Assembly (NCBI GenBank): GCA_022842645.1
Contig: JALHPE010000001.1
Coordinates: 264,178-328,177 of the forward strand
DNA from: Minisyncoccota bacterium
GTDB lineage: Bacteria > Patescibacteriota > Minisyncoccia > Phycocordibacterales > UBA2100
Reading direction: 5' to 3'
DNA: 64,000 nt
Position numbers and translations under genes: made by a program
Part shown: positions 6,366 through 63,905 of the stretch, piece after piece
Layout: each line of letters starts with the position of its first letter
Position numbering within the stretch: position 1 is the stretch's first letter
The notes under the pieces: generated by a model
Seen by the model: the letters and a program-made list of their open reading frames with translations, nothing else
Databases searched by the model: none
What the model was told of the DNA's origin: nothing

Positions 6366-6388
6366 GTTACGCTCCTAAGAGCACGTAC

Positions 6389-7142: not shown

Positions 7143-7427
7143 ATGGCGACCTCACGATCTGAGCAAGATCTACTCTCACGCCTTCGGACATCCCACCTTC
7201 GTGGTGGACGTGATGTCTTTTTGGTTGATCTTGCCGACATCCGCACATCTCGTATCATGATCAATCACGATGACATATTTAATCATGTGATGCGGAGAGC
7301 GCGTGCATTAAGTATGCAACATCATGATGTTGTACGAAAAACACGCCGACACATTGCAAACGAACGCTTGAAACTGAGAAAAGCAGTCGGTTTTGCAAGC
7401 GGAAACGGTCACGCGGTCGTGCGTTAA
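7143..7427 (+). CDS. hypothetical protein (94 aa)
   Basis: ORF only. Basic, no domain recognised. Confidence 0.25.
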   Translation: MATSRSEQDLLSRLRTSHLRGGRDVFLVDLADIRTSRIMINHDDIFNHVMRRARALSMQHHDVVRKTRRHIANERLKLRKAVGFASGNGHAVVR

Positions 7428-8935
7428 GGCGACTTCTCATGCGCGGCGGAACCTCCAGGTTCCGCCGCTTCTTTTTGCATAACAACCCACGCGAAGAGTG
7501 CTGCGTAACACCCCGCAAGCACCAATCCACTAAACGCGGGGATACTCAGCGTTCCAAAAGGAATCGCAGACAATAATTGTGCGGTCGTAATAATATACGA
7601 AAGCAGTGCGAGTGCTGGAAAACCAAATAAAGGTGCGAGAATGCCTGTAAAGAGCCCGAGGAGTGCCGCGAGCGCGGAAAAAAGCATGGCAAACGGAAGT
7701 GCAACAAGTACTAGGATATTCGCGGGGAGCGCGACGACGCTGAGCATTCCTGTCTGATAAAGCAGCAGTGGTAGAACGGCAATTTGGGTTCCAAGCGTGC
7801 CTGCTGCAATTTCTCGCACACCAAAGCGCGACGTGATCCATGAAAGATGCGTCTCAAAAAGCGGTGCGACAACGACAAGCCCGAGTGTGGCAATCACCGA
7901 AAGCTGAAAACCGGGATCATAGAGAAGTACGTAGGGGTTCCAGAAGATCATCCCCACCGCAACGAGAGCAAGTGCTCGCACAGCAAGATACGTGCGTCCG
8001 GTTGCCTTCCCTGCAATTGCGATTGTTGCCATAAGCGCCGCACGCGTCGACGCTGATGCAAATCCCGTAATCGCCGCAAAGAACAGTGCGACGAATGCGC
8101 CGAGCCCCAAACGCACTAATTGCGGTGCACGCGAGAGGGTGCGTAAGAGCGCATCCACTACGACCATAATGTTGTAGCCGGAGAGCACGACAATGTGCGT
8201 GAGACCCACGATGCGAAACGTTTCAGAAAGCTCTTCGCCGAGACCGCGCTTATCGCCCACCGTAATTCCGCCCGCGAGTCCAGCGTATGGCTCAGGAAGT
8301 GCGAGCGAAAGTCCTTCCAGAAACTTTTGCTTGAGCCAAATGGCACTGGCTTTCAAACGATTCCCCGTGCCACTTTCAATCACTTCTACGTGTGCAAACG
8401 ACATCTGATAGAGAATGCGATCTTTCGCAAGAAAGCCTGGGTAATCAAAGTATCTTCCCTCTCCTGTTTCAAAAGCTTCTGGGATGCGGAGCTCTCCCTC
8501 GACACGCACCCGATCGCCATACGTGCCGGGCGAGTGGAGTGGTGCGCTCACAATCACAGAAAGCGCACTCAATACTGTTGTTGAGCCCACACTCTCAATA
8601 CGCATGGTAAGCCGCACGTTTTTCTCTCGCACATCCGGCTCTGCTACAATCACTCCCTCGAACGAAACTTTTTCTCCCACGTAGACATCGATAAGGGGAT
8701 CACTCGTACGTGTCGCGCCCTGCATCCGCGCCATACCTCCAGCGCATGCGCAAAGGAGAAGTGCCGCAACTAATGCGACACGCCACTCTACCTGCGCAAC
8801 ACTGCTGGCGAGCAACAACATTCCTGCAAGCGCAATGAGCCACCCAAGAGTTACAACACCGAACGGAAAAAGACTTTGCACAAAAACTCCAACACTAAAA
8901 CCAATTACTAGTGTCCAAAATATTCGCACTGCCAT
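7424..8935 (-). CDS. comEC: ComEC/Rec2 competence membrane channel domain (no MBL domain)
   Basis: Polytopic membrane protein with a ComEC competence-domain signature. Start moved to internal ATG (MAVRIFW) because the TTG at 8983 overlaps the upstream terminator hairpin. Confidence 0.8.
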   Translation of the reverse strand: MAVRIFWTLVIGFSVGVFVQSLFPFGVVTLGWLIALAGMLLLASSVAQVEWRVALVAALLLCACAGGMARMQGATRTSDPLIDVYVGEKVSFEGVIVAEPDVREKNVRLTMRIESVGSTTVLSALSVIVSAPLHSPGTYGDRVRVEGELRIPEAFETGEGRYFDYPGFLAKDRILYQMSFAHVEVIESGTGNRLKASAIWLKQKFLEGLSLALPEPYAGLAGGITVGDKRGLGEELSETFRIVGLTHIVVLSGYNIMVVVDALLRTLSRAPQLVRLGLGAFVALFFAAITGFASASTRAALMATIAIAGKATGRTYLAVRALALVAVGMIFWNPYVLLYDPGFQLSVIATLGLVVVAPLFETHLSWITSRFGVREIAAGTLGTQIAVLPLLLYQTGMLSVVALPANILVLVALPFAMLFSALAALLGLFTGILAPLFGFPALALLSYIITTAQLLSAIPFGTLSIPAFSGLVLAGCYAALFAWVVMQKEAAEPGGSAAHEKSP

Positions 8936-8953
8936 CCCAGTAGCATAGCAATA

Positions 8954-8979
8954 CAAAAGCGGCACTCTTTCGAGTGCCG
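8954..8979 (-). terminator. rho-independent terminator (minus strand)
   Basis: CGGCACTC-GAAA-GAGTGCCG hairpin followed by CTTTTGTATT in minus sense. Lies between the 48-aa ORF stop and comEC. Confidence 0.55.
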
Positions 8980-9009
8980 CCAATTAGTTATGTCTTCGCG
9001 ACAGGCATT

Positions 9010-9156
9010 CTAGCCGTCAACGTACTTCCGAGTACGAGGATCATCCGCCGGACGATCGCGACGAGCCGGCGGTGCTCCCGCCCCACCAAATGTGGCGGGA
9101 GGAGCCGAAGTAACCGTCGCACCACTTGCAGTTGCAGCTTGCATGCCACTAGTCAT
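9010..9156 (-). CDS. small peptide ORF (48 aa, Ala/Thr/Gly/Pro-rich, basic C-terminus ending YVDG)
   Basis: AAGGAG SD 8 nt upstream of the ATG. Sits between the E1-like gene and a terminator. Sequence MTSGMQAATASGATVTSAPPATFGGAGAPPARRDRPADDPRTRKYVDG. Confidence 0.4.
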   Translation of the reverse strand: MTSGMQAATASGATVTSAPPATFGGAGAPPARRDRPADDPRTRKYVDG

Positions 9157-9271
9157 TTTAAGACTCCTTCTTGCCAAAGGTCCGCTTCTACAAACACGCT
9201 CTGGTTGCGGACACACCGAGCTCATTTGAATATACACAGAATAAGGCCGGGCGACAAGCTCGGCCTTATAG

Positions 9272-10000
9272 TTACTCTTCAGCATCTCCCCCAATTTCAT
9301 CTTCGTCCCAGTATTCATGGGCTTCTGCATATGTGGGAACATACTGCCACGCGAGCATATTAAGGTAGGGGTCTGGACATCCTTGTTCAAGGTGCAGCCA
9401 ACGATTGAGACGCCAGAGCATCTCGGCCGCTACACGATCGGAATTCTCGGGCATCGGAAACTCCGTTTTGCATCCTCCGTGTAAGTTTTCGGGGTCAGGA
9501 TGGTTATGGATCGGAGACTCAATGTCTGGCTCCTCGTAACATTCCAGGTGCCACGGATTGGCCGGATTGAATCCGAAAGCTTTGCCGCCATCCATGCCTA
9601 CCCTGCCATCTGCACAAAACGAAACCTTGCCACTTTGTTTGATGGATGGCAACACATCGTGATAACGAGATTTGTTTGAGTCCACTGCCATGAGCACAAT
9701 GCCACGCAGGAGAGTGTCTTTAGTTACCCTCTCGGCATGAGTGACAATGGTCGTATCGGATGCTGGATAGATGGTGCGCGCAATGCGCGCCAGACCCTCC
9801 ACTTTCAATGTGCCGACATCTGCATCGAAATACGGCTGGTTAAAGAGATTTCTTTCTTCTAGCACATCGGCATCCCACACATGGAGATTGGGTACGCGTT
9901 TGCGAAACAAATTTAAGAAAAGCTTCGCCCCCAGCGTCCCAGCCCCCACAACGTGTACTGGTCGTTCTTTCAAAAAACTGACATTGAAGAGAGTTTCCAC
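9272..10000 (-). CDS. E1-like enzyme, ThiF/MoeB/HesA superfamily
   Basis: Rossmann motif VHVVGAGTLGAKL, then NLHVWDADVLEERNLFNQ and ILMAVDSNKSR. GTG start with AAGGAGA SD 6 nt upstream. No CxxC zinc motifs. Confidence 0.8.
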   Translation of the reverse strand: METLFNVSFLKERPVHVVGAGTLGAKLFLNLFRKRVPNLHVWDADVLEERNLFNQPYFDADVGTLKVEGLARIARTIYPASDTTIVTHAERVTKDTLLRGIVLMAVDSNKSRYHDVLPSIKQSGKVSFCADGRVGMDGGKAFGFNPANPWHLECYEEPDIESPIHNHPDPENLHGGCKTEFPMPENSDRVAAEMLWRLNRWLHLEQGCPDPYLNMLAWQYVPTYAEAHEYWDEDEIGGDAEE

Positions 10001-10093
10001 GATGGTTCTCCTTGTATGCTTTGTTCACTCTGAGCACACCCTAACGCAAGTTGCGGAAAAAGAACAGGCGCATCTTCCGATGCGCCTGTATTT

Positions 10094-16113: not shown

Positions 16114-17688
16114 TTATCGTCCGCACGCCCCCGCATAGAGATACTCGGCTCCTGCGGCATTAAGCAGACACTTATTTGAATATGTTTTGGGATCATGGAG
16201 TTTGCATTCAAGCGTGCAATACATTCCTTCCCGGCATGTATTCGCGCATCCTGCCGGACGACCACAGACGGGGTCATACTGCGCAGTGCACGCCACTGGA
16301 TCGCTTGAAACTTTGACGGTGATAGAAACCTTTGCCTCCTTTCCATCAAGATCGCGCGCAACAACGCTCACCACATAGGTTCCCGGCGTGCTGTACGAAT
16401 GCGTAAAGGAGCTCGTTTGAGTAAAGACGGGAAGACTGGTAGAGATACCCGAGGCGTACTGTAGCTCATCCCCCCATGACACGTAGTAACTCAATTGCTG
16501 CCCCTCTGGGTCTGAGGCTTTTACCGTCCATGTTCCAGTTTCGTCTACGCGCAAGGTCGTTGGCCCTGAAAATCCTGAGATAGAAGGCGCTTTGCTGTTG
16601 TCGCCAAAATATCCGGTGCAGTACGGCTTCTGCATTGCTTCTGGCATACATGCCTTAAGCGTACACATTGCAGGGCCGTTCGGCTCAGAGCGCGAACATG
16701 AATTACATCCATCAAACCATTGCTTGCATCGCAAGTCTGTTGAGGGGTCGGTGTTTGTATCTCGACACGAACCCTCGTACAGCACTGTCGCGCCCTCGGC
16801 TCCAGCCACGCAGCGGTTGCTGTAGGTTTGCTGAATTGGATTACACGGAGTGGTGACACATACAATTGGCTTTGAGGCGCAGACTGGTTTGTATTCTTTC
16901 GTGCACGCTACTGGCCCAACAACAACCTGAATCTTACCGACCACTTCGTTCTGCACCGCTGCTAGGCAGCGCGGTGTGAGTGGATTTCCATCGTCGGGGC
17001 ATGGATCGGTAACCTTATTCAAGGTTGCTGTGTACGTGCCATTCCTGGTGTAGACATGCGTGTTTTGTCCGGGAGCGGTGCACGCATCTGCTGGTGCCAA
17101 ACAATCGGCTGCACGAGCACTCGAGCCGTCACCAAAGTCGATGGTATACGAAACGCCTGGTGCACGAAAACCGGAAAGCCACGTTTCAAAGGTGACCATG
17201 AGCGGCGCTTCGCCGCGCTCCGGGACTGCACTAAAACGCTCAGACGAATGGCCCCAACCCCCTCCGCACCACCCTCTAATGCGATCACGCGTCTTGGGGC
17301 CAATCACACCAATCGCATCAATTCCCTGTGCGGCCTGCCATTTGCGTACCGCTTCGCTCGTGAGCGCACCAAAATAGCCGCTCGCCTCTGCACTTAAATA
17401 GCCTTCTTGTTTCAAAAACTCTTGGAGTCCTTTTACATCCTCTCCACGAAAGCCGGGCAAAAGATTGCGCTCGAGAAGTGTGCACACACTATGCTTCCCC
17501 CCGGCAGGGAACGAAGCGACTTCAGGAATAGCTACTTGTGCCTGGAGGGATTTAATCTGTGCAGTGAGTCCAGAAATCTGCGCGAGAAGTGCTTGTATTT
17601 TTTCCTGCACCTCACTCGTCGAGAGCGCAGATGTTAAGACCGGCACGCATAGTACTACCATTAAAAGCCCGAGCGTCATTTTTTTCAT
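16114..17688 (-). CDS. secreted protein: signal peptide, coiled coil, PG-binding-like domain, two PKD-like domains and two Kazal-like Cys modules
   Basis: PGBD-like segment (GEDVKGLQEFLKQEGYL...GYFGALTSEAVRKWQAAQGI). PKD-like segments (DFGDGS...THVYTRNGTYTATL; WGDE...HSYSTPGTYVVSV). Kazal-like C..EYKPVC...TYSNRC...C and C.AQYDPVCG...KTYSNKC...AC. Confidence 0.7.
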   Translation of the reverse strand: MKKMTLGLLMVVLCVPVLTSALSTSEVQEKIQALLAQISGLTAQIKSLQAQVAIPEVASFPAGGKHSVCTLLERNLLPGFRGEDVKGLQEFLKQEGYLSAEASGYFGALTSEAVRKWQAAQGIDAIGVIGPKTRDRIRGWCGGGWGHSSERFSAVPERGEAPLMVTFETWLSGFRAPGVSYTIDFGDGSSARAADCLAPADACTAPGQNTHVYTRNGTYTATLNKVTDPCPDDGNPLTPRCLAAVQNEVVGKIQVVVGPVACTKEYKPVCASKPIVCVTTPCNPIQQTYSNRCVAGAEGATVLYEGSCRDTNTDPSTDLRCKQWFDGCNSCSRSEPNGPAMCTLKACMPEAMQKPYCTGYFGDNSKAPSISGFSGPTTLRVDETGTWTVKASDPEGQQLSYYVSWGDELQYASGISTSLPVFTQTSSFTHSYSTPGTYVVSVVARDLDGKEAKVSITVKVSSDPVACTAQYDPVCGRPAGCANTCREGMYCTLECKLHDPKTYSNKCLLNAAGAEYLYAGACGR

Positions 17689-17707
17689 ACTCTTTTTATA
17701 CATACTA

Positions 17708-19000
17708 TTAATATGCTTTGTAATCAGACCAACCCCCATCGGTACAGGTGAGCGTTACCGCACGCGCTTCAGTCGTCACTGAACACGAGAGCCACTGGCA
17801 TAATTGCGTACCTGGCGGAACGGTCACTGTTTTCGTAGAACCTTTTCCACTGCACGGCGTGCCAATAACGTTTGCATACCCCTGCAAGGCACCTTGGGGG
17901 GTAGACGTCGCAACTGTGTATTTCTGACAATCGGCACCAATCGATGAGCATTTGAGCCATTCCCCGTTCTCACATTTCACGATGGGCGATGATGTTGCGG
18001 GGAAATACGCGCCCTCTGTAAAAAACGGTTGCCAAAAGGAGGCTTGGCCATGCGCGATCACTTGCGCCCCCCAGGGAGTCACACAACTTTTCTGTACGGC
18101 GGTTGTGGCAATTGGAGGAACGAACGAAAAGGCGGGCGAGCTTGAACCACTCGCCTGACTGCGAACAGAAATCGCGTGGGTTGCAGAGGAGATCGCACCC
18201 AGCGTATCTTTCACATCCACGCGCAAGGTGTAATTCCCTGCTTTTGCATAGGCATGCGAGAGAAGTGAGGATTGCGTAAAAGAAGTTCCGATGCCAGCGA
18301 GTGAGCGAAGTATTTCTTCGACACTTTCATCGCCCCAGGTAACAGCGTACGAAAGAGCACTCCCTTCGGGATCTTGTGCGACGATGCGCCACGACGCGCT
18401 CTCGCCAACAAGAAGCGTGCTCGGTCCTTCAATGGCGTCGATCACCGGAGGCTTGTTGCCGGTATTTGAAAGTACGCAGCGCCATCCGGTGTGACATGCG
18501 CCGCTCTGCAGTTTTTGCCATACACCTGCGCAAGGAATGACTGGGGCTCCCGGAGCGACCGGGCACGTGGCCGCTCCTGGAGTCACGGTTTGCGCACCTC
18601 CGCAGCGTGCGGCGATCGCCGCGCGCGTCTTCACGCCCATCACGCCAAATCCTGTGCTCGCGGCATTTCCTGAAGAAACAACTCCCTCTGCTGCTTGAAA
18701 CGCACGCAGCGCTGCTTCAGTGAGAGAGCCAAAGTAGCCCGTCGCCTCACTCTGCAGAAGTCCGCGCGAGCGCAAGAATTCCTGGAGTGAGCGCACATCC
18801 TCGCCGCGTGCCCCAAGAGCGAGCGTGCGCGAGAGTGCGGGACACGCCGAAAGGCCTGAAACAGGTGGCGGCGCAGACTGCGGCGGCGCCGCCTGAATCT
18901 GCGCCATAAGCGCAGCAATCCGCGCCTGCAATTCTTCAATTGTTTGGGCGGAAAGCGAGAGTGGGAGTAGTACAAGGAGGATCAATGCGACACGAGCCAT
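17708..19000 (-). CDS. secreted protein: signal peptide, coiled coil, PG-binding-like domain, PKD-like domain
   Basis: Signal peptide MARVALILLVLLPLSLSAQT. PGBD-like segment LSRTLALGARGEDVRSLQEFLRSRGLL...GYFGSLTEAALRAF. PKD-like WGDE...SHAYAKAGNYTLRVDV. Confidence 0.7.
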   Translation of the reverse strand: MARVALILLVLLPLSLSAQTIEELQARIAALMAQIQAAPPQSAPPPVSGLSACPALSRTLALGARGEDVRSLQEFLRSRGLLQSEATGYFGSLTEAALRAFQAAEGVVSSGNAASTGFGVMGVKTRAAIAARCGGAQTVTPGAATCPVAPGAPVIPCAGVWQKLQSGACHTGWRCVLSNTGNKPPVIDAIEGPSTLLVGESASWRIVAQDPEGSALSYAVTWGDESVEEILRSLAGIGTSFTQSSLLSHAYAKAGNYTLRVDVKDTLGAISSATHAISVRSQASGSSSPAFSFVPPIATTAVQKSCVTPWGAQVIAHGQASFWQPFFTEGAYFPATSSPIVKCENGEWLKCSSIGADCQKYTVATSTPQGALQGYANVIGTPCSGKGSTKTVTVPPGTQLCQWLSCSVTTEARAVTLTCTDGGWSDYKAY

Positions 19001-29078: not shown

Positions 29079-30296
29079 CTAAATATTCTCCGAAAGCTGA
29101 TAGATCGGCGAGATCATCGCAACTGCGAAGAAGCCCACAGCGCCGCCAATTGCGATCATGAGAAACGGCTCAATCACCGTCGACATATCTTTCGTCTTTC
29201 GGTCCACCTCATCTTCGTAAAAGATAGCGAGTTTTTTCATCATGTCGGTAAGCTGCCCTGTTTCTTCTCCCACCGCCATCATCTCCCCCACAAACGCCGG
29301 ATAGAGGTGTTCGTTCCGCACAAAGGCAGCAGAGAGTGGCTCGCCCTTCCCCACATTCTCACGCGCCTCCACGACCACTGCCTTGAAATAACTGTTCTGC
29401 ACCACATCCGTCACAATCTCAAGCGAAGTAATCACATCCACGCCGGAAGAAAGGAGTGACGAGAGTGTGCGCGAAGCACGCGCCGCGTTCACTTCTTTCA
29501 CAATAGGACTAATAAGCGGGATGTGGAGGAATATAAAATCACGCACCCGAGACCCCGTCGCCGTTTTCACAAACGCAAAGATGCCACCAAAGAAAAGTAC
29601 AACCGCCGAAAATGCGACCACCGTGTAAGAGACTAGAAAATTAGAAACCGCGATGATTGCTTTTGTGGAAGCGGGAAGCTCCGCATCCATTTCCGCAAAG
29701 GTCTGTGCCAGGGTTGGCACCACGTTGATCATCATGAAAGCACCAATACCAATGATCGCAAACACTATAATGGCGGGATACAGGAGCGCGCCGCGAATCT
29801 TCTTCTTCAAAACATACATGCGCTCCATTTGTTCTGAAACAACCACAAGTGACTGCGAGAGCTGCCCGCCTTCCTCACCCGCACGAGTCATCGCGATAAA
29901 CAGTTTTGAAAAGATGCGCGGAAACTTCGCGAGTGCGGAGTGAAGCGTCTCGCCGCGGCGCACTGCGCCTGAAAGTTCGGTCACCACTTCAGCAAGGCGC
30001 GCATTCTTTGTCTGTCGCTCAATCACCGCAAGCGCACGCGCAAGCGAGAGCCCCGCAGAAAGCATCGCACCAAGGTTTCGCGCAAAGAGCACTTTGTCAT
30101 ACTCCGGGACGCTTGAAATCTTTGCATTCCAGTGCGCGAGTGAAAACCAAGACTTCGCCCCATCTTCCTCAACCGAAAGAATGCGACCACCCTCGTGGCG
30201 AACAATTTCATAAAGCGCAAAACGATCTTTCGCATCTGCGGTTCCCTTGTACACTTCCCCTCCCGCTTTCTCAGCAGTGTAAGTAAATTTCGCCAC
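29079..30296 (-). CDS. pilC: type IV pilus assembly / type II secretion platform protein PilC/GspF
   Basis: Two GspF repeats, about 406 aa from a GTG start (VAKFTYTAEKAGGEVYKG). The 132-aa upstream extension in the track is not PilC-like and overlaps a terminator and the 108-aa gene. TATAAT hexamer 6 nt upstream of the GTG. Confidence 0.85.
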   Translation of the reverse strand: MAKFTYTAEKAGGEVYKGTADAKDRFALYEIVRHEGGRILSVEEDGAKSWFSLAHWNAKISSVPEYDKVLFARNLGAMLSAGLSLARALAVIERQTKNARLAEVVTELSGAVRRGETLHSALAKFPRIFSKLFIAMTRAGEEGGQLSQSLVVVSEQMERMYVLKKKIRGALLYPAIIVFAIIGIGAFMMINVVPTLAQTFAEMDAELPASTKAIIAVSNFLVSYTVVAFSAVVLFFGGIFAFVKTATGSRVRDFIFLHIPLISPIVKEVNAARASRTLSSLLSSGVDVITSLEIVTDVVQNSYFKAVVVEARENVGKGEPLSAAFVRNEHLYPAFVGEMMAVGEETGQLTDMMKKLAIFYEDEVDRKTKDMSTVIEPFLMIAIGGAVGFFAVAMISPIYQLSENI

Positions 30297-30323
30297 ACAG
30301 TCATTATACCGTGCAAAAACATG

Positions 30324-30353
30324 CAAAAAAAAGAAGCGGGGGGTTCCCGCTTC
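30324..30353 (-). terminator. strong rho-independent terminator (minus strand)
   Basis: GAAGCGGG-AACCC-CCGCTTC followed by TTTTTTTTTGC in minus sense, directly after the 108-aa ORF stop. Confidence 0.75.
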
Positions 30354-30678
30354 AGTCACCTTCTTTAGATGATCTATTTCTAGCACTCTCGAGAGCTTCG
30401 AAGTGACCATCCACATGCACCCGAAACTCTTCCCATTGATTCCGTGACAGTTCGAGTGCCGCGGAAAAAACTCCCGTAGAGCACTCGACAAAAAGTGTTC
30501 GGACAAAATCTTCAGCTTTTGTATTTCCACCAAAACCACCAATAAAGAACTCGATATGTTTCTTGGTAAGCCGCAGATCGTGAAGAAGCGGCGGTCGATT
30601 ATGCACTTCGCGCCAAAACGAATCGAGTGTTTTCTCTTCGCGTAGCTTTTGTAGGTCGACAATGTTGTCTGTAGCCAT
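30352..30678 (-). CDS. hypothetical acidic protein (108 aa) between pilB and pilC
   Basis: Clean ORF in a different frame from the spurious PilC extension. Followed by a strong terminator. Confidence 0.5.
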   Translation of the reverse strand: MATDNIVDLQKLREEKTLDSFWREVHNRPPLLHDLRLTKKHIEFFIGGFGGNTKAEDFVRTLFVECSTGVFSAALELSRNQWEEFRVHVDGHFEALESARNRSSKEGD

Positions 30679-30737
30679 GTCTCACACCTCAAGGACGTTG
30701 CTGTTTTGAATATATCATCGGAGTCGTATCAAGCAAC

Positions 30738-32471
30738 CTATTCGGTAATCACCCTCAAAACCTCCTCTATTGTAGTAACCCCTTGCGATGCCTTAAAAAT
30801 TCCATCCTCAAGCATCGTAAGCATCCCCTCCTTTCGTGCCTGGTCGTGAATATCATCCGCCGTTGCATTCTTCATAACGAGCTCTTTTGTGGTCGCGCTC
30901 ACGGGAAGCACTTCGTAAATCCCCATACGCCCCGCAAAACCGTCACCCCCGCCATCAGTTTTCGGCTTCCAAAACGGCACGTTTTTCCACGTGGCATCCG
31001 GGGGAATAATTTTTTCCTCTTTCAGCGACTTAAGTACTATTCCCGCTTCAACTACGTGCTCAAGTTGTTTCTGTTCGTCGCGCGAGAGTTCATACTTCTC
31101 TTTCCCACCCGCAAGCTTACGCACGAGGCGTTGCCCGATCACCACCCGCAGCGTTGAAACCAAGAGAAACGGCTCAACACCCATGTCAAGAAGACGCGGA
31201 ATCGCACCCGCTGCGGAGTTTGTGTGAAGCGTTGAGAGCACTAAGTGCCCCGTAAGAGCCGCATTAATCGCAAGTGAGGCCGTTTCTTTATCACGAATCT
31301 CCCCCACCATGATGATGTCGGGATCCTGACGCACGAGTGAGCGAAGTCCATTTGCAAACGTGAATCCAATCTCTGGGCGCACCTGCGTCTGATTCACCCG
31401 CTTCATCTGATACTCAATCGGATCCTCAACGGTCGAAATATTTACGTCGGGCGTGTTCACCAGATCAAGGAGCGTGTAGAGCGTCGTTGATTTACCGGCG
31501 CCCGTCGGCCCCGTGGTGAGAATGAGTCCTGTCGTTTTCTTCATCGCCTCATGCATGTCTTCCAATGCTTTACCATGAAAACCAAGTGCCTCAAGCGAAA
31601 ATCCTGAGATGTTATCGCGGAGGAGTCGCATGACAATCTTCTCTCCATAGTAGGTAGGCAAAATGGAAACACGAAACGAAATTTTCTCGCCCCCTGCTTC
31701 AACACCAAAACGACCATCCTGGGGAAGACGCTTTTCATCAAGGCGCATGTTCGCCAACACTTTCACACGCGCGGTAATCGCAGGAGCCGCATGCTTAGGG
31801 AGCTCCATCGCGTCATGAAGGAGCCCATCGATGCGATACCGAATAAGAAGCGTCTCTTCTAGAGGCTCGATATGAATGTCTGAGGCGCCCTGCGCATTTG
31901 CGTGACGCAGAAGCGTGTCCACAATACGCACTGCGGGCACCCCTTCAGCCATCTTGCGCTCGTCATCCCCCGCGCCAGCACCCTCAGCGGCCAAGACATC
32001 CGTCTCGCGCTTGATGACATCTCCTAAATTATCTTTAAGCCCGCGCTGGTACTGCTTCAGCGCCGCTTTAATAGACGGAGCATCGGTGAGGCGCGGCAAG
32101 ACCTTCAGGCGCGTCTTCTTCTTAATGAAATCAATCGCTGCCAAGTCATCGGTATCGAGCATCGCCACTTCAAGCTCCTCGCCTTTGTGATTGTAGGCAA
32201 CGATGTTATTTCTGCGCGCGACAGGCTCAGGAATAAGAGAAAGCGTGTCAAAAGGAATCTTCTGTGTGGCAAGGGAAATAAAAGGAATGCCGAGAATGTA
32301 GGCATAGGTGCGACGAAGTTCGTCTTCGCCAATCAGTGCACGCCCAATTAAGATGTCGCCCACCGGCTGATTGCGCTCCTTAGCCTCCTGATCCGCTGCG
32401 TCAAAATCTTTCTGCGAAACCAAATTCGCATCAGAAAGAAATGTTTTTAGTTGCTGGTCAGAAATGTACAT
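30738..32471 (-). CDS. pilB: type IV pilus assembly ATPase PilB / GspE
   Basis: Walker A GPTGAGKST, Asp box, His box, GspE N-terminal domain. Start placed at MYISDQQLK. Confidence 0.9.
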   Translation of the reverse strand: MYISDQQLKTFLSDANLVSQKDFDAADQEAKERNQPVGDILIGRALIGEDELRRTYAYILGIPFISLATQKIPFDTLSLIPEPVARRNNIVAYNHKGEELEVAMLDTDDLAAIDFIKKKTRLKVLPRLTDAPSIKAALKQYQRGLKDNLGDVIKRETDVLAAEGAGAGDDERKMAEGVPAVRIVDTLLRHANAQGASDIHIEPLEETLLIRYRIDGLLHDAMELPKHAAPAITARVKVLANMRLDEKRLPQDGRFGVEAGGEKISFRVSILPTYYGEKIVMRLLRDNISGFSLEALGFHGKALEDMHEAMKKTTGLILTTGPTGAGKSTTLYTLLDLVNTPDVNISTVEDPIEYQMKRVNQTQVRPEIGFTFANGLRSLVRQDPDIIMVGEIRDKETASLAINAALTGHLVLSTLHTNSAAGAIPRLLDMGVEPFLLVSTLRVVIGQRLVRKLAGGKEKYELSRDEQKQLEHVVEAGIVLKSLKEEKIIPPDATWKNVPFWKPKTDGGGDGFAGRMGIYEVLPVSATTKELVMKNATADDIHDQARKEGMLTMLEDGIFKASQGVTTIEEVLRVITE

Positions 32472-43370: not shown

Positions 43371-43448
43371 TACATGTGCCTCAGGAGACCCCCGATGCAA
43401 CGCAGGGGATTATACAGCAAGAATAGGGGAGGGCAATTTTTATTTATT

Positions 43449-43576
43449 GGTCACGGATAACCCGACTGCCGTCGCAGTCGAGTTTCCGCGACCCCGCCTC
43501 GGCCGTTTCGCCTTTTGGAGAAACATGCCTCCGGCCAGCACCGGATCGAAAAAACCTGCCGCAGGGCAGGTTTTTT
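43449..43576 (+). ncRNA. candidate structured small RNA, copy A of a 3-member paralogous family (own terminator)
   Basis: GGTCACGGATAA head. Hairpin CGACT-GCCGTCGC-AGTCG. Conserved TTTCCGCGACCCCGCCTCGG. Hairpin GTTTCGCC-TTTT-GGAGAAAC. Terminator CCTGCC-GCAG-GGCAGG plus TTTTTT. About 75 percent identical to copies at 61408-61587 and 61588-61717. Confidence 0.55.
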
Positions 43577-43584
43577 CATATCGG

Positions 43585-43656
43585 TGCTCCCGCCAGGACT
43601 CGAACCTAGAATACGACGTCCGAAGCGTCGCGTGATATCCATTTCACCACGGGAGC
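43585..43656 (-). tRNA. tRNA-Arg (anticodon UCG)
   Basis: Manual fold: acceptor GCTCCCG/CGGGAGC, D arm GTGA-AATGGATA-TCAC, anticodon stem CGACG/CGTCG with loop CTTCGGA, T arm CTAGG-TTCGAGT-CCTGG. Confidence 0.85.
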
Positions 43657-43696: not shown

Positions 43697-45166
43697 ATGC
43701 GTCTGATGAAGCTTGAAGTGCCTCAAATCGTACATGATGTGCACGCGCGCCTCAGAGAAGCTGGTTTTGAGGCATATCTAGTCGGTGGATGTGTGAGAGA
43801 CCTCCTACTCGGGCGCATTCCTAAAGATTGGGACATCACTACAAACGCAACTCCCGAACAAATTCAACCTTTGTATGATGAAACGTTTTACGAGAATGCG
43901 TATGGCACCGTGGGAGTTGTCACTGAGTCTGACGACCTAAAACTAAAAGTCGTAGAGATAACGCCATACCGAACCGAAGGGAAGTACTCAAACGCCCGAC
44001 ACCCTGACGAGGTGGCGTGGAGCACAAACCTCTCCGACGATCTAAAGAGGCGTGATTTCACCATAAACGCGATTGCATATGATCCCGTATCTGAAACTAT
44101 TGTCGATGAACATGGGGGAAAAGAAGATTTAGAGCGTAAAACACTAGTTGCCGTGGGAAATCCGGAGGATCGTTTTGCTGAAGACGCACTTCGAATGCTC
44201 CGCGCAGTGCGCCTTGCCGCGGAACTTGATTTTGCGCTCGATGGCGCTACCGCTGCAGGAATAGCCCTGCATGCGGGAAAACTCGCCGACATATCTCGAG
44301 AGCGCGTGCGCGATGAGTTTATACGAACACTCGAGAGTGACCGCCCAATGCAAGCGCTTTATGTGGCTCAAAAACTAGGTATTTTGAAGCACATCATTCC
44401 TGAACTGGAAGAGGGGATTGGGTGCGAACAAAATCAAGCGCACTCATTCGATGTGTTTGAGCACCTTCTGCGAGCCATGCAACATGCTGCAGATGAAAAA
44501 TGGCCGCTTGTGGTGAGACTTTCAGCACTCCTCCACGACGTTGGAAAACCCGCCACAAGAAAGTGGTCGGATGAAAAGAAAGATTGGACATTCCATGGAC
44601 ACGACGTCGTAAGCGCGCGTATGGCGCGAACAATACTTGCGGATCTACGTATATCCAAAGACCTCGCTCAAAAAGTGGAGTCCCTCGTGCGATGGCATAT
44701 GTTCTTCTCGGATCCCGACACCATCACACTTTCTGCGGTTCGCAGGGTCATAACGCGCGTAGGAACCGAGAATATCCAGGATCTTCTTAAGCTCAGGGTG
44801 TGTGACCGAATTGGCACAGGACGCCCTAAAGCACATCCATTCAGGCTTCGTAAGTACATGTCCATGGTAGATGAAGCAATGCGCGATCCGATATCCGTGA
44901 GCATGCTAAAAGTGAACGGGGAAGATATACAAAAAATGGGGGAGAAGCCTGGGCGTCGCATAGGATGGGTTCTTCATGCACTTCTTGAAGAAGTGCTCGA
45001 AGACCCTACAAAAAACACAGCCGAAGCCCTTACGGAGCGCGTACAGGTACTACTCTCACTCCCCGATAAAGAATTGCAGGATCTCGGGGAAGCGGGGAAA
45101 GACCGAAAAGAAGAGGAGGAGAAAGGGGTGGTAGCGGAACTGCGCAAGAAACATCACGTACGTTAA
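43697..45166 (+). CDS. cca: CCA tRNA nucleotidyltransferase with HD domain
   Basis: GGCVRDLLLGRIPKDWDITT polymerase head motif. HD domain (LLHDVGK). Full length. Confidence 0.9.
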   Translation: MRLMKLEVPQIVHDVHARLREAGFEAYLVGGCVRDLLLGRIPKDWDITTNATPEQIQPLYDETFYENAYGTVGVVTESDDLKLKVVEITPYRTEGKYSNARHPDEVAWSTNLSDDLKRRDFTINAIAYDPVSETIVDEHGGKEDLERKTLVAVGNPEDRFAEDALRMLRAVRLAAELDFALDGATAAGIALHAGKLADISRERVRDEFIRTLESDRPMQALYVAQKLGILKHIIPELEEGIGCEQNQAHSFDVFEHLLRAMQHAADEKWPLVVRLSALLHDVGKPATRKWSDEKKDWTFHGHDVVSARMARTILADLRISKDLAQKVESLVRWHMFFSDPDTITLSAVRRVITRVGTENIQDLLKLRVCDRIGTGRPKAHPFRLRKYMSMVDEAMRDPISVSMLKVNGEDIQKMGEKPGRRIGWVLHALLEEVLEDPTKNTAEALTERVQVLLSLPDKELQDLGEAGKDRKEEEEKGVVAELRKKHHVR

Positions 45167-46392: not shown

Positions 46393-47310
46393 TTACACTT
46401 TTCGCTTCCCATGGAAATTACGGTGGATCTCGCGGAGGTGTTTGTCGGTGACGTGGGTATAGACCTGGGTTGTTGCAATGTTTGCGTGCCCCAAAAGCGC
46501 CTGTACCGAGCGGAGATCGGCGCCATTTTCTAGAAGATCAGTTGCAAATGAGTGACGAATCGTGTGCGGCGTCACTTTGCGAGTAATACCTGCCTTCACT
46601 GCATATTGCTTCACAATGTATTGCACCGAGCGTGAGGTAAGACGCTTTTTGTCCGCCCCTTTTCCACTGGTGCCGCCGCGACCATATCCAACAAAGAGGG
46701 CCTCACCCATGTCTCCTCGTTTTTTGAGGTAGTCAGCCACCGCACTCTTCGCAGAGGGGGACAGAAACACCACACGCACCTTTTCCCCCTTCCCGCGCAC
46801 CGAAAACTCATCGCGTGAAAGGTCAATATCGGCGTTCAGGGAACAGAGCTCCGAGACGCGCAATCCTGTCGAAAAAAGAAGTTCGAGAATTGCTCTGTCA
46901 CGGAGGGCTTGTAGGGATTCTCCCGAAGGACCCTTCATGAGGCGGCCCAGTTCAGCGCTCGTAATAAGATCGAGGTCGCGCCCACCCACCTTCGCAAGCT
47001 CTATGCGCTCGGGGGAGAGGGATTCAATACCTTGCTTCCGCATGTATTTAAGAAAGGCGCGTAAGGCAATGAGGTAATAGTTCTGGGTCTTTTTCTTCAT
47101 AGAACCCGCCACCCCTGGCTCACGGTTGAGCCAAATGCGGAATTCACGGACGACGGGCTCCGTGAGCTGTGCAGGAGTTTTAACCTTGGTTCTCTCAAGA
47201 AATCGAGAAAGATACCGGTCATAATTTTCAACCGTTTTCACCGAACGCCCTTTTTCGATCTCACAGTATTCGAGAAACTGTGTTTTTAGGCTTTTGAGAT
47301 CTTGTGCCAT
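46393..47310 (-). CDS. xerC: tyrosine recombinase XerC/XerD family
   Basis: N-terminal SAM-like domain. Catalytic R...HxxR...Y pattern (ELLFSTGLRVSE, HTIRHSFAT, QVYTHV). Confidence 0.85.
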   Translation of the reverse strand: MAQDLKSLKTQFLEYCEIEKGRSVKTVENYDRYLSRFLERTKVKTPAQLTEPVVREFRIWLNREPGVAGSMKKKTQNYYLIALRAFLKYMRKQGIESLSPERIELAKVGGRDLDLITSAELGRLMKGPSGESLQALRDRAILELLFSTGLRVSELCSLNADIDLSRDEFSVRGKGEKVRVVFLSPSAKSAVADYLKKRGDMGEALFVGYGRGGTSGKGADKKRLTSRSVQYIVKQYAVKAGITRKVTPHTIRHSFATDLLENGADLRSVQALLGHANIATTQVYTHVTDKHLREIHRNFHGKRKV

Positions 47311-60566: not shown

Positions 60567-61342
60567 AGCATGGAGCTCGCCTCGGACAACACTTCCTCAA
60601 CGCCGACTGGGTTGCGCGCGATCTGACAAAAAGCGTGAACGTACGAGACGGCGAGACTATTCTCGAAATTGGTCCCGGCACTGGTGTGTTGACGCGCCAC
60701 CTTCTTAAAACAGGCGCCCCTGTTGTCGCCATTGAAAAAGACGAAGTCCTTGTTGCTCGCCTCCGCGAGACATTCGCAGAGGAAATCGCACAAGATACAC
60801 TCTCGCTCGTAGAAGGTGATGTGCGTGATGCTGCTCCAGAAAAACTGTTGCCCTCTAATTCGTATGTACTCGCCGCGAATATCCCGTACTACATTACGGG
60901 GGAAATCATTCGCCTCTTTCTCACCGCAAAAAAGCAACCGCGCGCGGCCGCACTTCTCATACAAAAAGAGGTTGCGGAACGCATCGTTGCCCGTGACGCG
61001 AAAGAAAGTATTCTTTCGCTCTCGGTAAAAGCCTATGGAACACCAAAAATAATCGCAAAAGTTCCTGCGGGATGTTTTAATCCGCCACCATCGGTAGACT
61101 CCGCAATCATTCTTATAGAGAACATTTCAAGAAACTTTTTTAGCACCACGAGCGAAGAGAATTTTTTTAAAGTGGTAAAAGCAGGATTTGCCTCAAAGCG
61201 TAAAATGCTGGCGGGGAACTTGAAAAAAATGTTTCCTGATGCAGCGGGAATGCTGCGAAGTCTTGGATTAGATGAGAAAGTGCGAGCCGAAGACGTGGCA
61301 CTTAAGGAGTGGAGGAGTATTGTGGAGAAACTCGAGTCTTGA
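60563..61342 (+). CDS. rsmA: 16S rRNA (adenine1518/1519-N6)-dimethyltransferase
   Basis: GQHFL, ILEIGPGTGVLT SAM motif, ANIPYYI motif. Confidence 0.9.
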   Translation: MKHGARLGQHFLNADWVARDLTKSVNVRDGETILEIGPGTGVLTRHLLKTGAPVVAIEKDEVLVARLRETFAEEIAQDTLSLVEGDVRDAAPEKLLPSNSYVLAANIPYYITGEIIRLFLTAKKQPRAAALLIQKEVAERIVARDAKESILSLSVKAYGTPKIIAKVPAGCFNPPPSVDSAIILIENISRNFFSTTSEENFFKVVKAGFASKRKMLAGNLKKMFPDAAGMLRSLGLDEKVRAEDVALKEWRSIVEKLES

Positions 61343-61350
61343 GAATATTG

Positions 61351-61587
61351 GCTCGGTCACAAGTCGTTTTGTTGCCCCGGGTCGGCAGACGACGCAGAAA
61401 AAGTTCGCGGTCACACATAATTTCCTGCTGGAAATTTGCGCGACCCCGCCTCAGCGCCAAGCGCTTCCGGCCTTGCGAAGCCACGCTTCGCTCGCTTCTC
61501 ACCCGGCTCGCCGTTTCGCCTACTGGCGAAACATGCCCGCGACCGAGTTCCCAAGAAAAAATCAGTGCTCAAGCACTGATTTTTATT
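61351..61587 (+). ncRNA. candidate structured small RNA, copy B1 (partial 5' head duplication, about 55-nt internal insertion, own terminator)
   Basis: GCTCGGTCACAAG head. Second head at 61408 CGGTCACACATAA. Hairpin AATTTCC-TGCT-GGAAATT. Conserved TTTGCGCGACCCCGCCTCAG. Hairpin GTTTCGCC-TACT-GGCGAAAC. Terminator TCAGTGC-TCAA-GCACTGA plus TTTTT. Confidence 0.55.
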
Positions 61588-61717
61588 GCTCGGTCACAGA
61601 TAATTCTTTTGCCGTCGCAAAAGAATTTCCGCGACCCCGGCTCGCGGTTTTGCCTTCTGGCAAAACATCGCTCCGCCCGTCGAGTCTGATGAAAAAGAGT
61701 GCGCAGGCACTCTTTTT
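61588..61717 (+). ncRNA. candidate structured small RNA, copy B2 (tandem to B1, own terminator)
   Basis: GCTCGGTCACAGATAA head. Hairpin AATTCTTTT-GCCGTCGC-AAAAGAATT. Conserved TTTCCGCGACCCCGGCTCG. Hairpin GTTTTGCC-TTCT-GGCAAAAC (compensatory change relative to A and B1). Terminator AGAGTGC-GCAG-GCACTCT plus TTTTT. Confidence 0.55.
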
Positions 61718-62043
61718 CACTGACTCGACCCCATCATGTCGATGTTGACGCCAGAATCGACTTGGATTGGCGCAAGAGACCAGACGCAATAATAGGGAGC
61801 ACTTGCAAGCCCGAGAAGCCACTGTCCTGTGCGTCGCGGTGGACCAAACTGATAGGTGCGTGTTGCGGGGGTCCAGATAAACGAACCGCCGCGCGGTCCC
61901 GAAAGATATACCTGAATCGCATTGTTGTAACAGGGGCGCACCATAGTGATTTGTCCTCCAAAGGGAAACGCGTAGGTTATGTTGGGAAGCGCGAGCGCAA
62001 AAAGAAGTCCCACTACGAGAAAACGCATGTGTACAGTGTACAA
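61717..62043 (-). CDS. hypothetical small secreted protein (108 aa)
   Basis: Signal peptide MRFLVVGLLFALALPNITYA. ORF only. Confidence 0.45.
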   Translation of the reverse strand: MYTVHMRFLVVGLLFALALPNITYAFPFGGQITMVRPCYNNAIQVYLSGPRGGSFIWTPATRTYQFGPPRRTGQWLLGLASAPYYCVWSLAPIQVDSGVNIDMMGSSQ

Positions 62044-62051: not shown

Positions 62052-63029
62052 GTGGACACAGCTATACTTACGCACATGCTCCAGGCAGGTGGTAACTATA
62101 ATGACATGATCGGGACGGGAGATCCTACGCCCGTATCTGTAGAGCCGGCACAAGAAGCAAAGGAATCGTGGGTGCATCGCCATCCCTTGCTCGCAGGAAC
62201 AATCGCCCTAAGCGGACTCATTGTCCTCGGTGGAGCAATTGTGCTCCAGCGCATGGGCGTAACTCCTGCGCCACAAAGCGGATCGTGGGGTGGGGCAGGT
62301 GGGGCATTTTTTAGCACCGTCCGAAATGCCACCCCCGTTCGCCCCGCTTCAGGGAGCGCGCCAACCACACCAACCGAAGATTATGCAGTTATTCCCATAT
62401 TTGATACCACGATTTCTGAGGATACCACTGAGGTTCCCGAAGGCTTAAACGAGCTTCTTGCACTCCTTGTGCAACCAAAAACCGACGTCGACATAAACGC
62501 ACCGGAAACGCCCGATGCCTACTCATTTATTCCTCAAGGGCTCGTCAGTGCTGAAAAACCCGAAAAACCACGTACACAGACACAAAATTCCCTGCATTCT
62601 TTTGGAAACGCAGTTGGTACGCTCGTGAAGCCTTTCGAGGAAAGTGCACGCATAAACGCTCAAACACTGAAAAATCACGCCGAAGACCGTTCTGACCCAG
62701 AAAAAATGGCACAGGTAGAGGCCCTTGCATTTACACTTGCACAGCTCGGTGTGGATATTCTTGGCATCGCCGATATTCCCGAGAGCGCACGCGCAGCGCA
62801 TAAAGAATACGGCACCGCCTATCGCATTCTCGGCACACAACTTGCTGCACTTTCAAAAGCGAAGACCGATGAAGAATTCCTGAGTGCAATCGTCGACTAC
62901 AACACTGCCGTTGAGGAGCTCACCAAGAAGTTCCTTATGCTTGTTGCCATCTTTAATGCAAATAATGTCACGTTCTCATCGTCAGACCCAGGAAGTATTT
63001 TTATGTTTTCCGGCACTGCTGGTCTCTAG
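62052..63029 (+). CDS. hypothetical membrane/secreted protein (325 aa)
   Basis: One N-terminal TM helix (LLAGTIALSGLIVLGGAIVL), Pro/Thr-rich linker, C-terminal helical region. Confidence 0.5.
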   Translation: MDTAILTHMLQAGGNYNDMIGTGDPTPVSVEPAQEAKESWVHRHPLLAGTIALSGLIVLGGAIVLQRMGVTPAPQSGSWGGAGGAFFSTVRNATPVRPASGSAPTTPTEDYAVIPIFDTTISEDTTEVPEGLNELLALLVQPKTDVDINAPETPDAYSFIPQGLVSAEKPEKPRTQTQNSLHSFGNAVGTLVKPFEESARINAQTLKNHAEDRSDPEKMAQVEALAFTLAQLGVDILGIADIPESARAAHKEYGTAYRILGTQLAALSKAKTDEEFLSAIVDYNTAVEELTKKFLMLVAIFNANNVTFSSSDPGSIFMFSGTAGL

Positions 63030-63056
63030 AACCTTAGAGCGCGTTATACTAAGAAA

Positions 63057-63905
63057 ATGAACAAGCGTCTCTCGCGCGGTGCTTCTCCTATAGCCGTTGC
63101 GGCAGCTCTTTCTGTTGCGATGCTTATCGCCGCGCTTGGCTCAGAACTTGGAGAACGTATGCGCACAAAGCCTGTGCCTGAAACTCCCACACCCTCAGAG
63201 GCGCGCGAGTATGTACCCATCGCGGACGCCGACAAGGATGGTATAGCAGACTGGCAAGAAGAGCTTTTAGGAGAAACTGCTTCTTCTACGGGAACATCAT
63301 CTCCCTCAGCTCCGACTGACCCCGTAGAAAATTTTGGTGGCGCAGTCATGCAATCCCTCGTTTCGGGCTATCTTTCGCTCAAAGAGCACAATCAATATAC
63401 GCCCGAGAGGGGAGAGCTTCTTGCGGAACGCCTTGCAACACAGATAAAAGCACCTGTTATCTTCGTGCCGCACACCGAATCCGAACTCACCCTCGTTGTG
63501 GATACGGGCGAGGCGCAACTCCTACGCTACCGCTCCGATATGCGCGCAGCTCTTGCGCCGATGGTGGATCTTTCTGCCGAGCCAGAGTTCTCGCTCTACG
63601 CACGTTATATTGCGACAAACGACACAGCGTGGCTCGATCAACTGTCCGAAACTGCTGCACGCTATCGCACCGCCGAATCCGCTGTGCTTAAAGTGGAAGT
63701 TCCCATGAGTGCGAAAGACGTACATTTGCGCGCAGTGAATGCGCTCGGTAAATACACAGAAACCCTCGAGCGACTTGTCCGCTTTGCAAATGACCCAATC
63801 GCCTCCTTAGCACTTTTGAGAACGTATAATGAAGATGAGCGAGAATTCCTTCTCGCGTTTGATGCATTGGCGAAATTTTATGTTGCAAACATCAAGGGAA
63901 ACTAA
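63057..63905 (+). CDS. hypothetical secreted protein (282 aa)
   Basis: Signal/anchor sequence (IAVAAALSVAMLIAALG). ORF only. Confidence 0.5.
   Translation: MNKRLSRGASPIAVAAALSVAMLIAALGSELGERMRTKPVPETPTPSEAREYVPIADADKDGIADWQEELLGETASSTGTSSPSAPTDPVENFGGAVMQSLVSGYLSLKEHNQYTPERGELLAERLATQIKAPVIFVPHTESELTLVVDTGEAQLLRYRSDMRAALAPMVDLSAEPEFSLYARYIATNDTAWLDQLSETAARYRTAESAVLKVEVPMSAKDVHLRAVNALGKYTETLERLVRFANDPIASLALLRTYNEDEREFLLAFDALAKFYVANIKGN

Follow-up and report, generated by a model that had tools for sequence, protein, structure and literature searches.

The DNA analysed here, referred to as the window, is a stretch of 64,000 nt from Minisyncoccota bacterium (assembly GCA_022842645.1, contig JALHPE010000001.1, positions 264,178 to 328,177 of the forward strand). 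Its RsmA homologues group the organism with Kaiserbacteria-like Patescibacteria. Two intergenic regions of the window carry copies of a small folded element: copy A lies between the genes for the transfer RNAs (tRNAs) tRNA-Arg(tcg) and tRNA-Gly(gcc), whereas copies B1 and B2 lie behind rsmA, where the 3' end of a small minus-strand protein gene occupies the place that is held by a tRNA 3' end elsewhere. We give roughly even credence to the reading that these copies belong to an undescribed, Patescibacteria-specific family of small, non-autonomous and fold-dependent insertion elements of tRNA gene ends.

Elements of this family are about 110-190 nt long and form a three-way junction made up of a closing helix P0, a composite hairpin P2 and a 20-bp hairpin P1. 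P2 contains an internal loop GNA/GA and an AU bulge, and P1 is characterised by G.U wobbles, a bulged A and the tip UGC-GACG-GCA or a variant of it. On the minus strand, the unit runs from a hairpin P4 (loop CUGC) through an arm a' into the three-way junction with P2 and P1, and ends in a flank a2. The parts present in the window are given below, with scores from R1, a covariance model built from homologues.

43583 to 43656, minus strand: tRNA-Arg(tcg), the gene ahead of copy A (ARAGORN and Rfam).
43549 to 43576, minus strand: P4 hairpin of copy A, A6-CCTGCC-(loop CUGC on the minus strand)-GGCAGG-T6 (sequence and fold).
43438 to 43550, minus strand: core of copy A (R1 101.3 bits, E 7e-28), with a' at 43537-43543, P2 at 43496-43535, P1 at 43449-43493 and flank a2 at 43438-43448, as read from the sequence.
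61717 to 62028 or 62043, minus strand: gene of a small secreted-looking protein of 103-108 amino acids (open reading frame list; gene calls in loci L001-L009).
61679 to 61729, minus strand: P4 hairpin of copy B2 (arms 61690-61702/61707-61719, loop CUGC on the minus strand) with an outer stem that encloses it, 61679-61686 GTCGAGTC paired with 61722-61729 GACTCGAC (inverted repeats I2 and I3).
61581 to 61692, minus strand: core of copy B2 (R1 113.5 bits, E 1.6e-31), with a' at 61681-61686, P2 at 61639-61677, P1 at 61592-61636 and flank a2 at 61581-61591, as read from the sequence.
61557 to 61584, minus strand: hairpin AAAAATCAGTGCT-CA-AGCACTGATTTTT, the P4-type module of a broken unit (inverted repeat I4).
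61505 to 61543, minus strand: P2-only fragment of a further broken copy (R1 22 bits, model positions 16-54 only).
61398 to 61485, minus strand: copy B1, a complete member of a short subfamily (R1 46 bits, E 1.6e-11), with P1 at 61409-61445 (loop AGCA on the minus strand), P2 at 61448-61471 and the closing arms CUUCGC/GCGAAC, from the sequence.
About 61351 to 61368, minus strand: P1 3'-end fragment (GGTCACAAGTCG on the plus strand) beside the rsmA stop codon (direct repeats D3 and D4).

Exact matches to the block GCGACCCCGSCTC occur in the window only at 43488, 61440 and 61631, and R1 matches the three copies, all on the minus strand. They can be aligned end to end, and each of them folds well beyond shuffled sequences (z about -6.5 to -7.3). 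The three related copies proposed in an initial annotation of this DNA are thus real, as are their shared blocks with stems that differ in sequence and remain paired, which are now extended by 37 genomic and 126 distinct metagenomic homologues. The compensatory double change GTTTTGCC/GGCAAAAC versus GTTTCGCC/GGCGAAAC in the second hairpin was also found. The parts had to be redrawn, because the supposed separate first hairpin is a 20-bp helix from GGTCAC to GCGACC, so that the former head and half of the invariant block are the base strands of P1. The loop GCCGTCGC and GCGAC, between which a pseudoknot had been suggested, both lie inside P1. Likewise, B1 had been described as 61351-61587 with a duplicated head and an insertion of about 55 nt; it is a composite of a short-subfamily copy plus fragments, in which the insertion consists of B1's own P2 and closing arm followed by the P2-only fragment, and the duplicated head or partial third head is the P1 3'-end fragment. 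The stretch behind rsmA contains two intact units and at least two broken ones.

Homologues were collected with patterns that required conserved motifs. A strict scan of one genome per species gave 40 loci, 38 of them true and all of these in Patescibacteria, and a broader scan gave at least 120 metagenome loci; the metagenome-based counts below refer to the matches listed from them. R1 produced 53 matches in 41 genome loci and 130 matches in 100 loci of the metagenome set, with 126 distinct copies. The structure was obtained by RNAalifold in both orientations and by hand curation on alignment A4, which comprises 37 genome copies. In A4, the paired fraction of cells is 91.3%, and double changes occur in 30 of the 41 pairs; these values were reached by none of 500 shuffles, and slid controls were only 35-43% paired. 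The corresponding values in the independent metagenome set are 92.1% and 38 of 41 pairs, in an alignment that leans towards the structure because it was fitted to R1. Covariation far above the shuffle and slide controls, together with the lack of a confident Rfam match, upholds the claim of a novel conserved structured element and shows that a folded single strand, either DNA or RNA, is under selection. An example is the copy at the rsmA site of L012, in which the stems are fully compensated (CATTCATGC/GCATGAATG and GTCGCGCG/CGCGCGAC); the B2 orthologues in L008 and L019 have compensated stems as well. The mean identity between loci is 0.61-0.63, the median identity of paralogues within one locus is 0.58, and near-identity is restricted to exact tandem duplicates.

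The base pairs also reveal which strand folds. In P1, there are no G.U cells on the plus strand and 64 A.C cells, and the latter are G.U pairs on the minus strand. One P1 pair is G.U in nearly all copies, and another one is G.U, G-C or A-U in a ratio of 16-17:16:4. The minus orientation is more stable for P1 in 37 of 37 copies and for P2 in 33 of 37, and the P1 of copy A, which has the loop GACG, the bulged A and the conserved G.U, belongs to a unit with a fold energy of -74.2 kcal/mol on the minus strand versus -64.3 kcal/mol on the plus strand. Because of the G.U/A.C asymmetry and the fold energies, we conclude that the folded strand is the minus strand of the window, which places the terminator-like hairpin ahead of the core.

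This hairpin, P4, is a module of the unit, because the loop CUGC is found in 57 of 144 hairpins upstream of copies versus 3 of 56 hairpins after element-free tRNAs; it also ends the preceding gene. In copy A, it stands directly behind tRNA-Arg and is terminator-like in both directions. The GC hairpin with a T-run that had been assigned to each copy is visible in the sequence, but a consensus terminator scan called none of these hairpins; P4 was probably missed because its A-run pairs with its T-run. The counterpart of the hairpin lacks the T-run in L008, in L012 and in T-loop-type copies, for instance L015.

Among the matches listed, 104 of 160 copies have a co-oriented tRNA or transfer-messenger RNA (tmRNA) gene within 150 nt upstream and none has an opposed one. 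The genes ahead of the copies represent 21 types, and the gaps between gene and copy cluster near 31-33 nt and 50-55 nt. Neighbouring protein genes have housekeeping functions, and all-against-all clustering of the open reading frames at 38 and 158 loci revealed no recombinase or transposase that recurs near the copies. Copy A is flanked on the minus strand by the hairpin and U-run after tRNA-Arg and by a promoter-like site of tRNA-Gly(gcc), TTGCCC-16-TATAAT (window 43409-43436, minus strand), which follows directly after the flank of copy A and is kept in L173-L176. The gene for the CCA-adding enzyme (window 43697-45166, plus strand) adjoins this cluster. Most tRNA genes in the loci studied lack a fully encoded CCA, and their trailers usually begin with CAAA or similar.

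One mark of insertion is a repeat of the tRNA 3' part after the P1 3' end (GUGACC). It reaches at least 12 nt in 43 of 104 copies among the matches listed, compared to a mean of about 4.5 nt in shuffled controls, and 41 of these 43 repeats have their start 17-20 nt short of the tRNA end, directly behind GGTTC of the T-loop. The seven examples checked contain exact repeats of 22-68 nt that extend into the trailer, and because the trailer is included, they derive from DNA or from the primary transcript and not from mature tRNA. In a second, smaller group with two clear cases, the repeat is shorter and begins about 2 nt before the annotated tRNA 3' end, at what we read as the discriminator; copy A belongs to this group. 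Deleting the unit would restore the tRNA followed by its native hairpin in L036 and L028. Identical tandem units are found in L075 (three copies with a 134-nt period), L055, L063 and L070, and nested or partial copies in L045, L042, L046 and at 61351-61543 of the window. A variant group (L021 5910-6060 and 6427-6580; L047, L101, L125, L057, L114) carries an extra small hairpin, GCGTACTCGC or similar, which separates the P1 3' end from a partial tRNA 3' fragment, and the junction of this group differs from those of both main groups.

A further connection to the target is provided by the arm a', which lies just 5' of P2 and is complementary to the start of the repeated segment over 6-15 nt. Its contiguous pairing has a mean of 4.6 with its own partner versus 2.0 with swapped partners, and pairings of at least 8 bp make up 18.8% versus 1.6%. 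The complements extend up to 15 nt and cover tRNA positions 57-71; in copy A, the last bases of tRNA-Arg plus one (43582-43588, AGCACCG on the minus strand) pair with a' (CGGUGCU). Of the positions at which the tRNA and the a2 repeat disagree, 104 are matched by a' in the tRNA alone and 23 in a2 alone. Selection for an in-situ closing helix of a' and a2 is therefore not supported, given the drift of a2 and the closer match of a' to the real tRNA. The fit of a' to the tRNA is 77.5%, about as high as the 79% identity between repeat and tRNA, so that both may be decaying records of insertion next to a tRNA that is held constant. In the 3'-end group, a hairpin begins at the tRNA end, and a' doubles as its descending strand. 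Behind rsmA, the pairing partner of a' is formed by the final codons of the small minus-strand gene, whose synonymous changes a' tracks in L008, L012 and L019, and the outer stem of B2, which overlaps the last codons and the stop codon of this gene, covaries with the same codon changes.

Orthologous sites show a birth-and-death pattern. The tRNA-Arg(tcg)-tRNA-Gly(gcc) site beside the CCA-enzyme gene carries intact copies in the window and in L174. In L175, it is empty, with a 66-nt spacer (tRNA-Arg, ACAA, tRNA-Gly promoter-like site), L173, the closest relative, retains a 33-nt P1 remnant of another subtype, and L176 has a degenerate copy whose subtype also differs from that of the window copy. 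Behind rsmA, the two copies and fragments of the window correspond to one B2-type copy plus a remnant in L008, one copy each in L012 and L019, and one degenerate copy in L010. A BLAST search with flanks for empty sites among the sampled loci returned only the rsmA group and one other pair.

The precise junction, the restored tRNA and the complementary arm under P1 fit strand exchange by a folded single strand. In the mechanism that we propose, the element would enter just before the repeated segment, at positions that we take to be C56|G57 (T-loop) or C72|A73 (discriminator), and would bring its own copy of the tRNA 3' end and the terminator-like hairpin. The tRNA would stay intact because the element supplies both parts, and the displaced original tRNA 3' end would be left as the downstream repeat. 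Within the folded strand, a' would pair with the target segment and stack under P1, as a homology check or as a splint, and the strand would present its own 3' end beside the paired target segment for exchange. The enzyme would act in trans and would not be encoded beside the copies. We favour single-stranded DNA over RNA as the folded form, because copy A lies between a hairpin with a U-run and the promoter-like site of tRNA-Gly. The behaviour of a repeated and site-specifically inserted unit comes close to the DNA-level repeat that the initial annotation had set against an RNA gene, but the covariation identifies a folded single strand under selection. In an unlikely variant, the element would be a guide-programmed mobile nucleic acid without a protein gene: a' would pair after tRNA nucleotide 56 or 72, the junction would place the 3' end GUGACC for strand transfer, and a new ribozyme or a generic host ligase or recombinase would act as catalyst.

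Several observations weigh against insertion elements of this kind. The mechanism is one that we infer, and no enzyme was found beside the copies at 158 loci. In the tRNA-3'-end group, including copy A, the repeat is short or weak, and the single-copy relatives L012 and L019 at the rsmA site have no downstream repeat. The covariation of a' with the upstream codons at this site suggests that the stem is selected in situ, and the matching of a' to 21 tRNA types is left unexplained. Moreover, old and diverse copies that are still 92% paired look more like a functional RNA family than like a recently active miniature inverted-repeat transposable element (MITE). Intact copies are over-represented because the search patterns demanded conserved motifs.

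This long retention of structure in many old, divergent copies is better explained if the copies are functional small RNAs of the minus strand that arise by read-through from the upstream tRNA or other gene, a reading that we regard as somewhat unlikely. In the T-loop class, a' and the repeated tRNA 3' part would form a minihelix similar to an acceptor/T-stem, and RNase P, RNase Z and the CCA-adding enzyme could mature an RNA of about 125 nt in which P2 and P1 replace the T-loop; repeats and arrays would be by-products of gene duplication. The strict co-orientation with the upstream transcription unit, the compensatory changes among orthologous copies behind rsmA and the conserved unpaired nucleotides, G.U and bulged A, as in protein- or RNA-binding RNAs, agree with such transcripts, and a hairpin comes after the repeat in L036, L028 and L095 (read as the native tRNA terminator in L036 and L028), which would give a pre-tRNA-like 3' end. 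However, the core lies downstream of a hairpin with a U-run in A, B1, B2 and several other 3'-end-type copies, copy A has no terminator of its own and is immediately followed by the next promoter-like site, and the 3'-end group is unable to form the tRNA-like minihelix. In addition, the better fit of a' to the tRNA than to the drifting a2 (104 versus 23) implies that an in-situ closing helix is not conserved, and about a third of the occurrences at two orthologous sites are decayed, with one site empty. The opposite strand was the choice of the initial annotation, which saw stand-alone small RNA genes on the plus strand, about 130 nt long and each with its own intrinsic terminator. A GC hairpin and T-run do close each unit on this strand, and the plus strand, too, folds far better than shuffled sequences (z about -6.6). 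Nevertheless, the reading is extremely unlikely, because P1 has 64 A.C mismatch cells and no G.U on the plus strand, which is the less stable one for P1 in all 37 copies and for P2 in 33 of them, and on the folding minus strand the hairpin and T-run precede the core. The T-run is absent in the loci named above, the window scan found no promoter-like site ahead of the units, and neither the strict tRNA orientation nor the repeats have a role in this reading.

Direct repeats of the tRNA 3' part from the T-loop or 3' end, the use of tmRNA genes and tandem accretion would also be expected of leftover attachment sites (attL/attR, or the arms of attP) of ordinary double-stranded integrative elements or prophages, with incidental hairpins. 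We consider this improbable, because the distance between the two repeats is always as short as about 130-190 nt, neither an integrase nor cargo lies beside the copies, viral contigs, phages and plasmids contain no match, and variable paired stems with a G.U-versus-A.C strand bias are not expected of double-stranded protein-binding sites. That the copies always follow the 3' end of a small gene or of a tRNA or tmRNA gene in the same orientation is instead compatible with an immobile module that would act in cis at the 3' ends of highly expressed genes, as a terminator, an insulator or a stabiliser, as are the bidirectional-terminator-like P4 of many copies and the a1/a' stem at the rsmA site, which encloses the stop codon and covaries with synonymous changes. 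Such a module is highly improbable, since it leaves the precise P1/T-loop junction, the 22-68-nt repeats, the identical tandem units and the conservation of the P1 and P2 loops beyond the terminator unexplained, and the orthologous tRNA-Arg site works without the element in L175.

A number of other candidates were rejected. Retrovirus-like tRNA priming or retro-copying of mature tRNA is contradicted by repeats that carry the genomic trailer and not CCA, and a fixed-length target duplication by repeats of variable length and by the empty L175 site, which has only ACAA where copy A has its flanks. For a riboswitch or cis-regulatory leader, no regulated gene lies downstream on either strand; copies are located between convergent genes or between a tRNA and a promoter-like site. 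A MITE was dismissed in view of the lack of terminal inverted repeats, the repeat length of 12-68 nt and the median paralogue identity of 0.58. The K-turn (kink-turn) reading of the P2 internal loop fails by inspection, as the loop is too short (3 x 2 nt). Among self-cleaving ribozymes (hammerhead, twister, twister-sister, hatchet, pistol and hepatitis delta virus-like), the only match was a 13-bit chance match to Hammerhead_II (E 4.2), and the CUGAUGA of B2 that might recall a hammerhead is not conserved among other copies. An autonomous parent element was not found either: only housekeeping genes surround the copies at the 38 and 158 loci, and searches of viral contigs, phages and plasmids were empty. 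Rfam 15 at gathering thresholds recognised only four tRNAs in the window, and at E values up to 10 it gave only chance or terminator-like matches, all far below threshold. Full-text literature searches gave no description of the element.

The only recombinase seen in the window is an Xer-type tyrosine recombinase (46393-47310, minus strand; Phage_integrase and SAM-like N-terminal domain), which is 15 kb away and syntenic in L174, L176 and L177. The window also encodes uptake machinery that would deliver single-stranded DNA, namely a ComEC competence channel (7424-8935, minus strand) and the ATPase and platform genes of a type IV pilus/type II secretion system (29079-32471, minus strand). The Xer-type protein is a candidate enzyme only, and nothing ties Xer or ComEC to the element. 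Another lead, a Y1 transposase, was abandoned: the only Y1_Tnp gene seen in the sampled loci is in L012, where an insertion of about 930 bp (17405-18347) carries a Y1_Tnp-like gene of 231 amino acids flanked by AAGGGGAACCCTTGCTC repeats that are unrelated to the element. This insertion lies between two genes of a type IV secretion cluster that are adjacent in relatives. The same locus encodes a UvrD/PcrA helicase orthologue with an intein (6987-10004; Hint, Intein_splicing; 1005 versus 661 amino acids in the window). In L010, a prophage-like insertion (1-6681) with a DNA methylase, a Phage_rep_O-like protein and a large serine recombinase seems to have cut short the Mg-chelatase-like comM gene, which is intact in the window and in L008.

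Further features of the rsmA region and of other loci were noted. The short subfamily of B1 also occurs behind tRNAs in L052, L050 and L047, the hairpin AAAAATCAGTGCT-CA-AGCACTGATTTTT is retained identically in L010, and the P1 remnant on the rsmA side is also present in L008, where it is fused to TGATTTTTATTG through a deletion. Seven public contigs of the same strain carry the identical intergenic sequence. The contig of L006, a public assembly of this strain, ends at 4557, within the repeat region and 36 nt past rsmA, which suggests that the repeat units cause assembly breaks. The long open reading frames 61272-61748 and 61309-61689 (both plus strand) are most likely artefacts, as had been assumed, since they are merely open and have no other support; the intergenic stretch that they span is only 160 nt long in L008. 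In L012 (10811-11095), a gene caller did call such an open reading frame, of the kind that runs through repeat units or antisense to the small gene and is likewise most likely an artefact. The small protein itself gave no match in a Pfam search; it is signal-peptide-like and precedes a conserved cluster of unknown proteins (window 62076-63905; 13-20 kb in L002 and L008), beyond which PrgI-, TraC- and TraG-like type IV secretion genes are located. Another motif that recurs, GAGCGAAGC, often contributes to a small hairpin immediately behind tRNA 3' ends (L039 about 2700-2790; L047 about 980-1020; trailers of L057, L063, L086, L102, L115 and L125; window about 61486-61500), and the copy in L039 carries, inserted into its P2 loop, a unit of about 38 nt, AATCTCTTGAGCGAAGCGATTAGAGATTGGAAGTACTC, that L047 contains as well; the two motifs may represent another small repeat family.

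Patescibacteria have very small genomes with few recognised mobile elements or non-coding RNAs. The sampled DNA, about 0.93 Mb, contains at least 160 copies of this family, which shows textbook covariation and occupies the 3' ends of tRNA and tmRNA genes of 21 types. If mobile, the element would be the smallest one known to integrate into tRNA genes and restore them, and its internal target-complementary arm would point to a choice of site guided by nucleic acid, a matter of interest for the study of recombination and perhaps for the development of tools. Guide programming, if true, would define a new class of self-targeting elements that are reprogrammable through a'. If the copies are functional RNAs instead, an entire bacterial radiation would possess a major class of RNA that has escaped annotation. 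In both cases, the family accounts for spurious open reading frame calls and assembly breaks behind tRNA genes, and the covariance model can be used for annotation.

The general kind of element is known, either as a small non-autonomous structured repeat or as a tRNA-integrating element. MITEs, REP/REPIN sequences (repetitive extragenic palindromes) and palindromes derived from the insertion sequences IS200/IS605 are likewise small, non-coding, repeated, hairpin-rich and intergenic, often near terminators, and the ends of IS200/IS605 use short guide-target pairing on single-stranded DNA. In contrast to these, the present element has neither terminal inverted repeats nor a fixed short target duplication, its copies within a genome are only about 60% identical, and it shows strong compensatory covariation. 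Small RNAs linked to tRNAs, such as 3' external transcribed spacers and tRNA-like minihelices, are found on the same strand directly downstream of a tRNA, and the T-loop class could form a helix similar to an acceptor/T-stem; unlike them, the element stands behind a terminator-like hairpin, follows 21 types of tRNA and tmRNA gene, and displays repeats and arrays.

Direct repeats of the tRNA 3' part, from the T-loop or from the 3' end, are the classical mark of integrase-mediated islands, and Williams reportedly distinguished sublocation classes of tRNA-gene integration in 2002. The element shares with islands and prophages of tyrosine integrases the tRNA 3' direct repeats with an intact tRNA at one end, the restoration of the tRNA by an element-borne copy, the use of tmRNA genes and tandem accretion. 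It differs from them in that the whole unit is only about 130-190 nt long and has no integrase or cargo, with no recurring recombinase family at the 158 loci, and in having a strand-specific, covarying structure and an internal target-complementary arm. To our knowledge, the combination of a three-way junction, strand-specific covariation, a T-loop or 3'-end junction with a restored tRNA, a target-complementary arm and no enzyme of its own has no counterpart.

Integron attC sites consist of a core repeat, an inverse core, a folded region and a core repeat, they form tandem arrays, and only one of their strands folds. The element resembles them in repeat layout, in the single folding strand with its variable yet paired stems, in the arrangement of units in arrays and in the proposed crossover at the junction of inner helix and outer stem. 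It is unlike them in that its consensus lacks RYYYAAC/GTTRRRY cores, its neighbours are housekeeping genes with no IntI or attI nearby, its cassette has no open reading frame, its target is a tRNA T-loop or 3' end, and a conserved three-way junction with conserved loops takes the place of a variable terminal structure. CTXphi and other elements use host Xer recombinases to integrate as folded single-stranded DNA (cf. PMC3442271). The element would be similar in that the recombinase is not its own, a duplex site would come from intramolecular pairing of a single strand and an Xer-type gene is present in the window, and it would differ in that its target is not dif, it is not a phage and there is no sign of Xer acting on it. 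Integron attC sites and the Xer-dependent CTXphi are partial precedents for the strand exchange that we propose.

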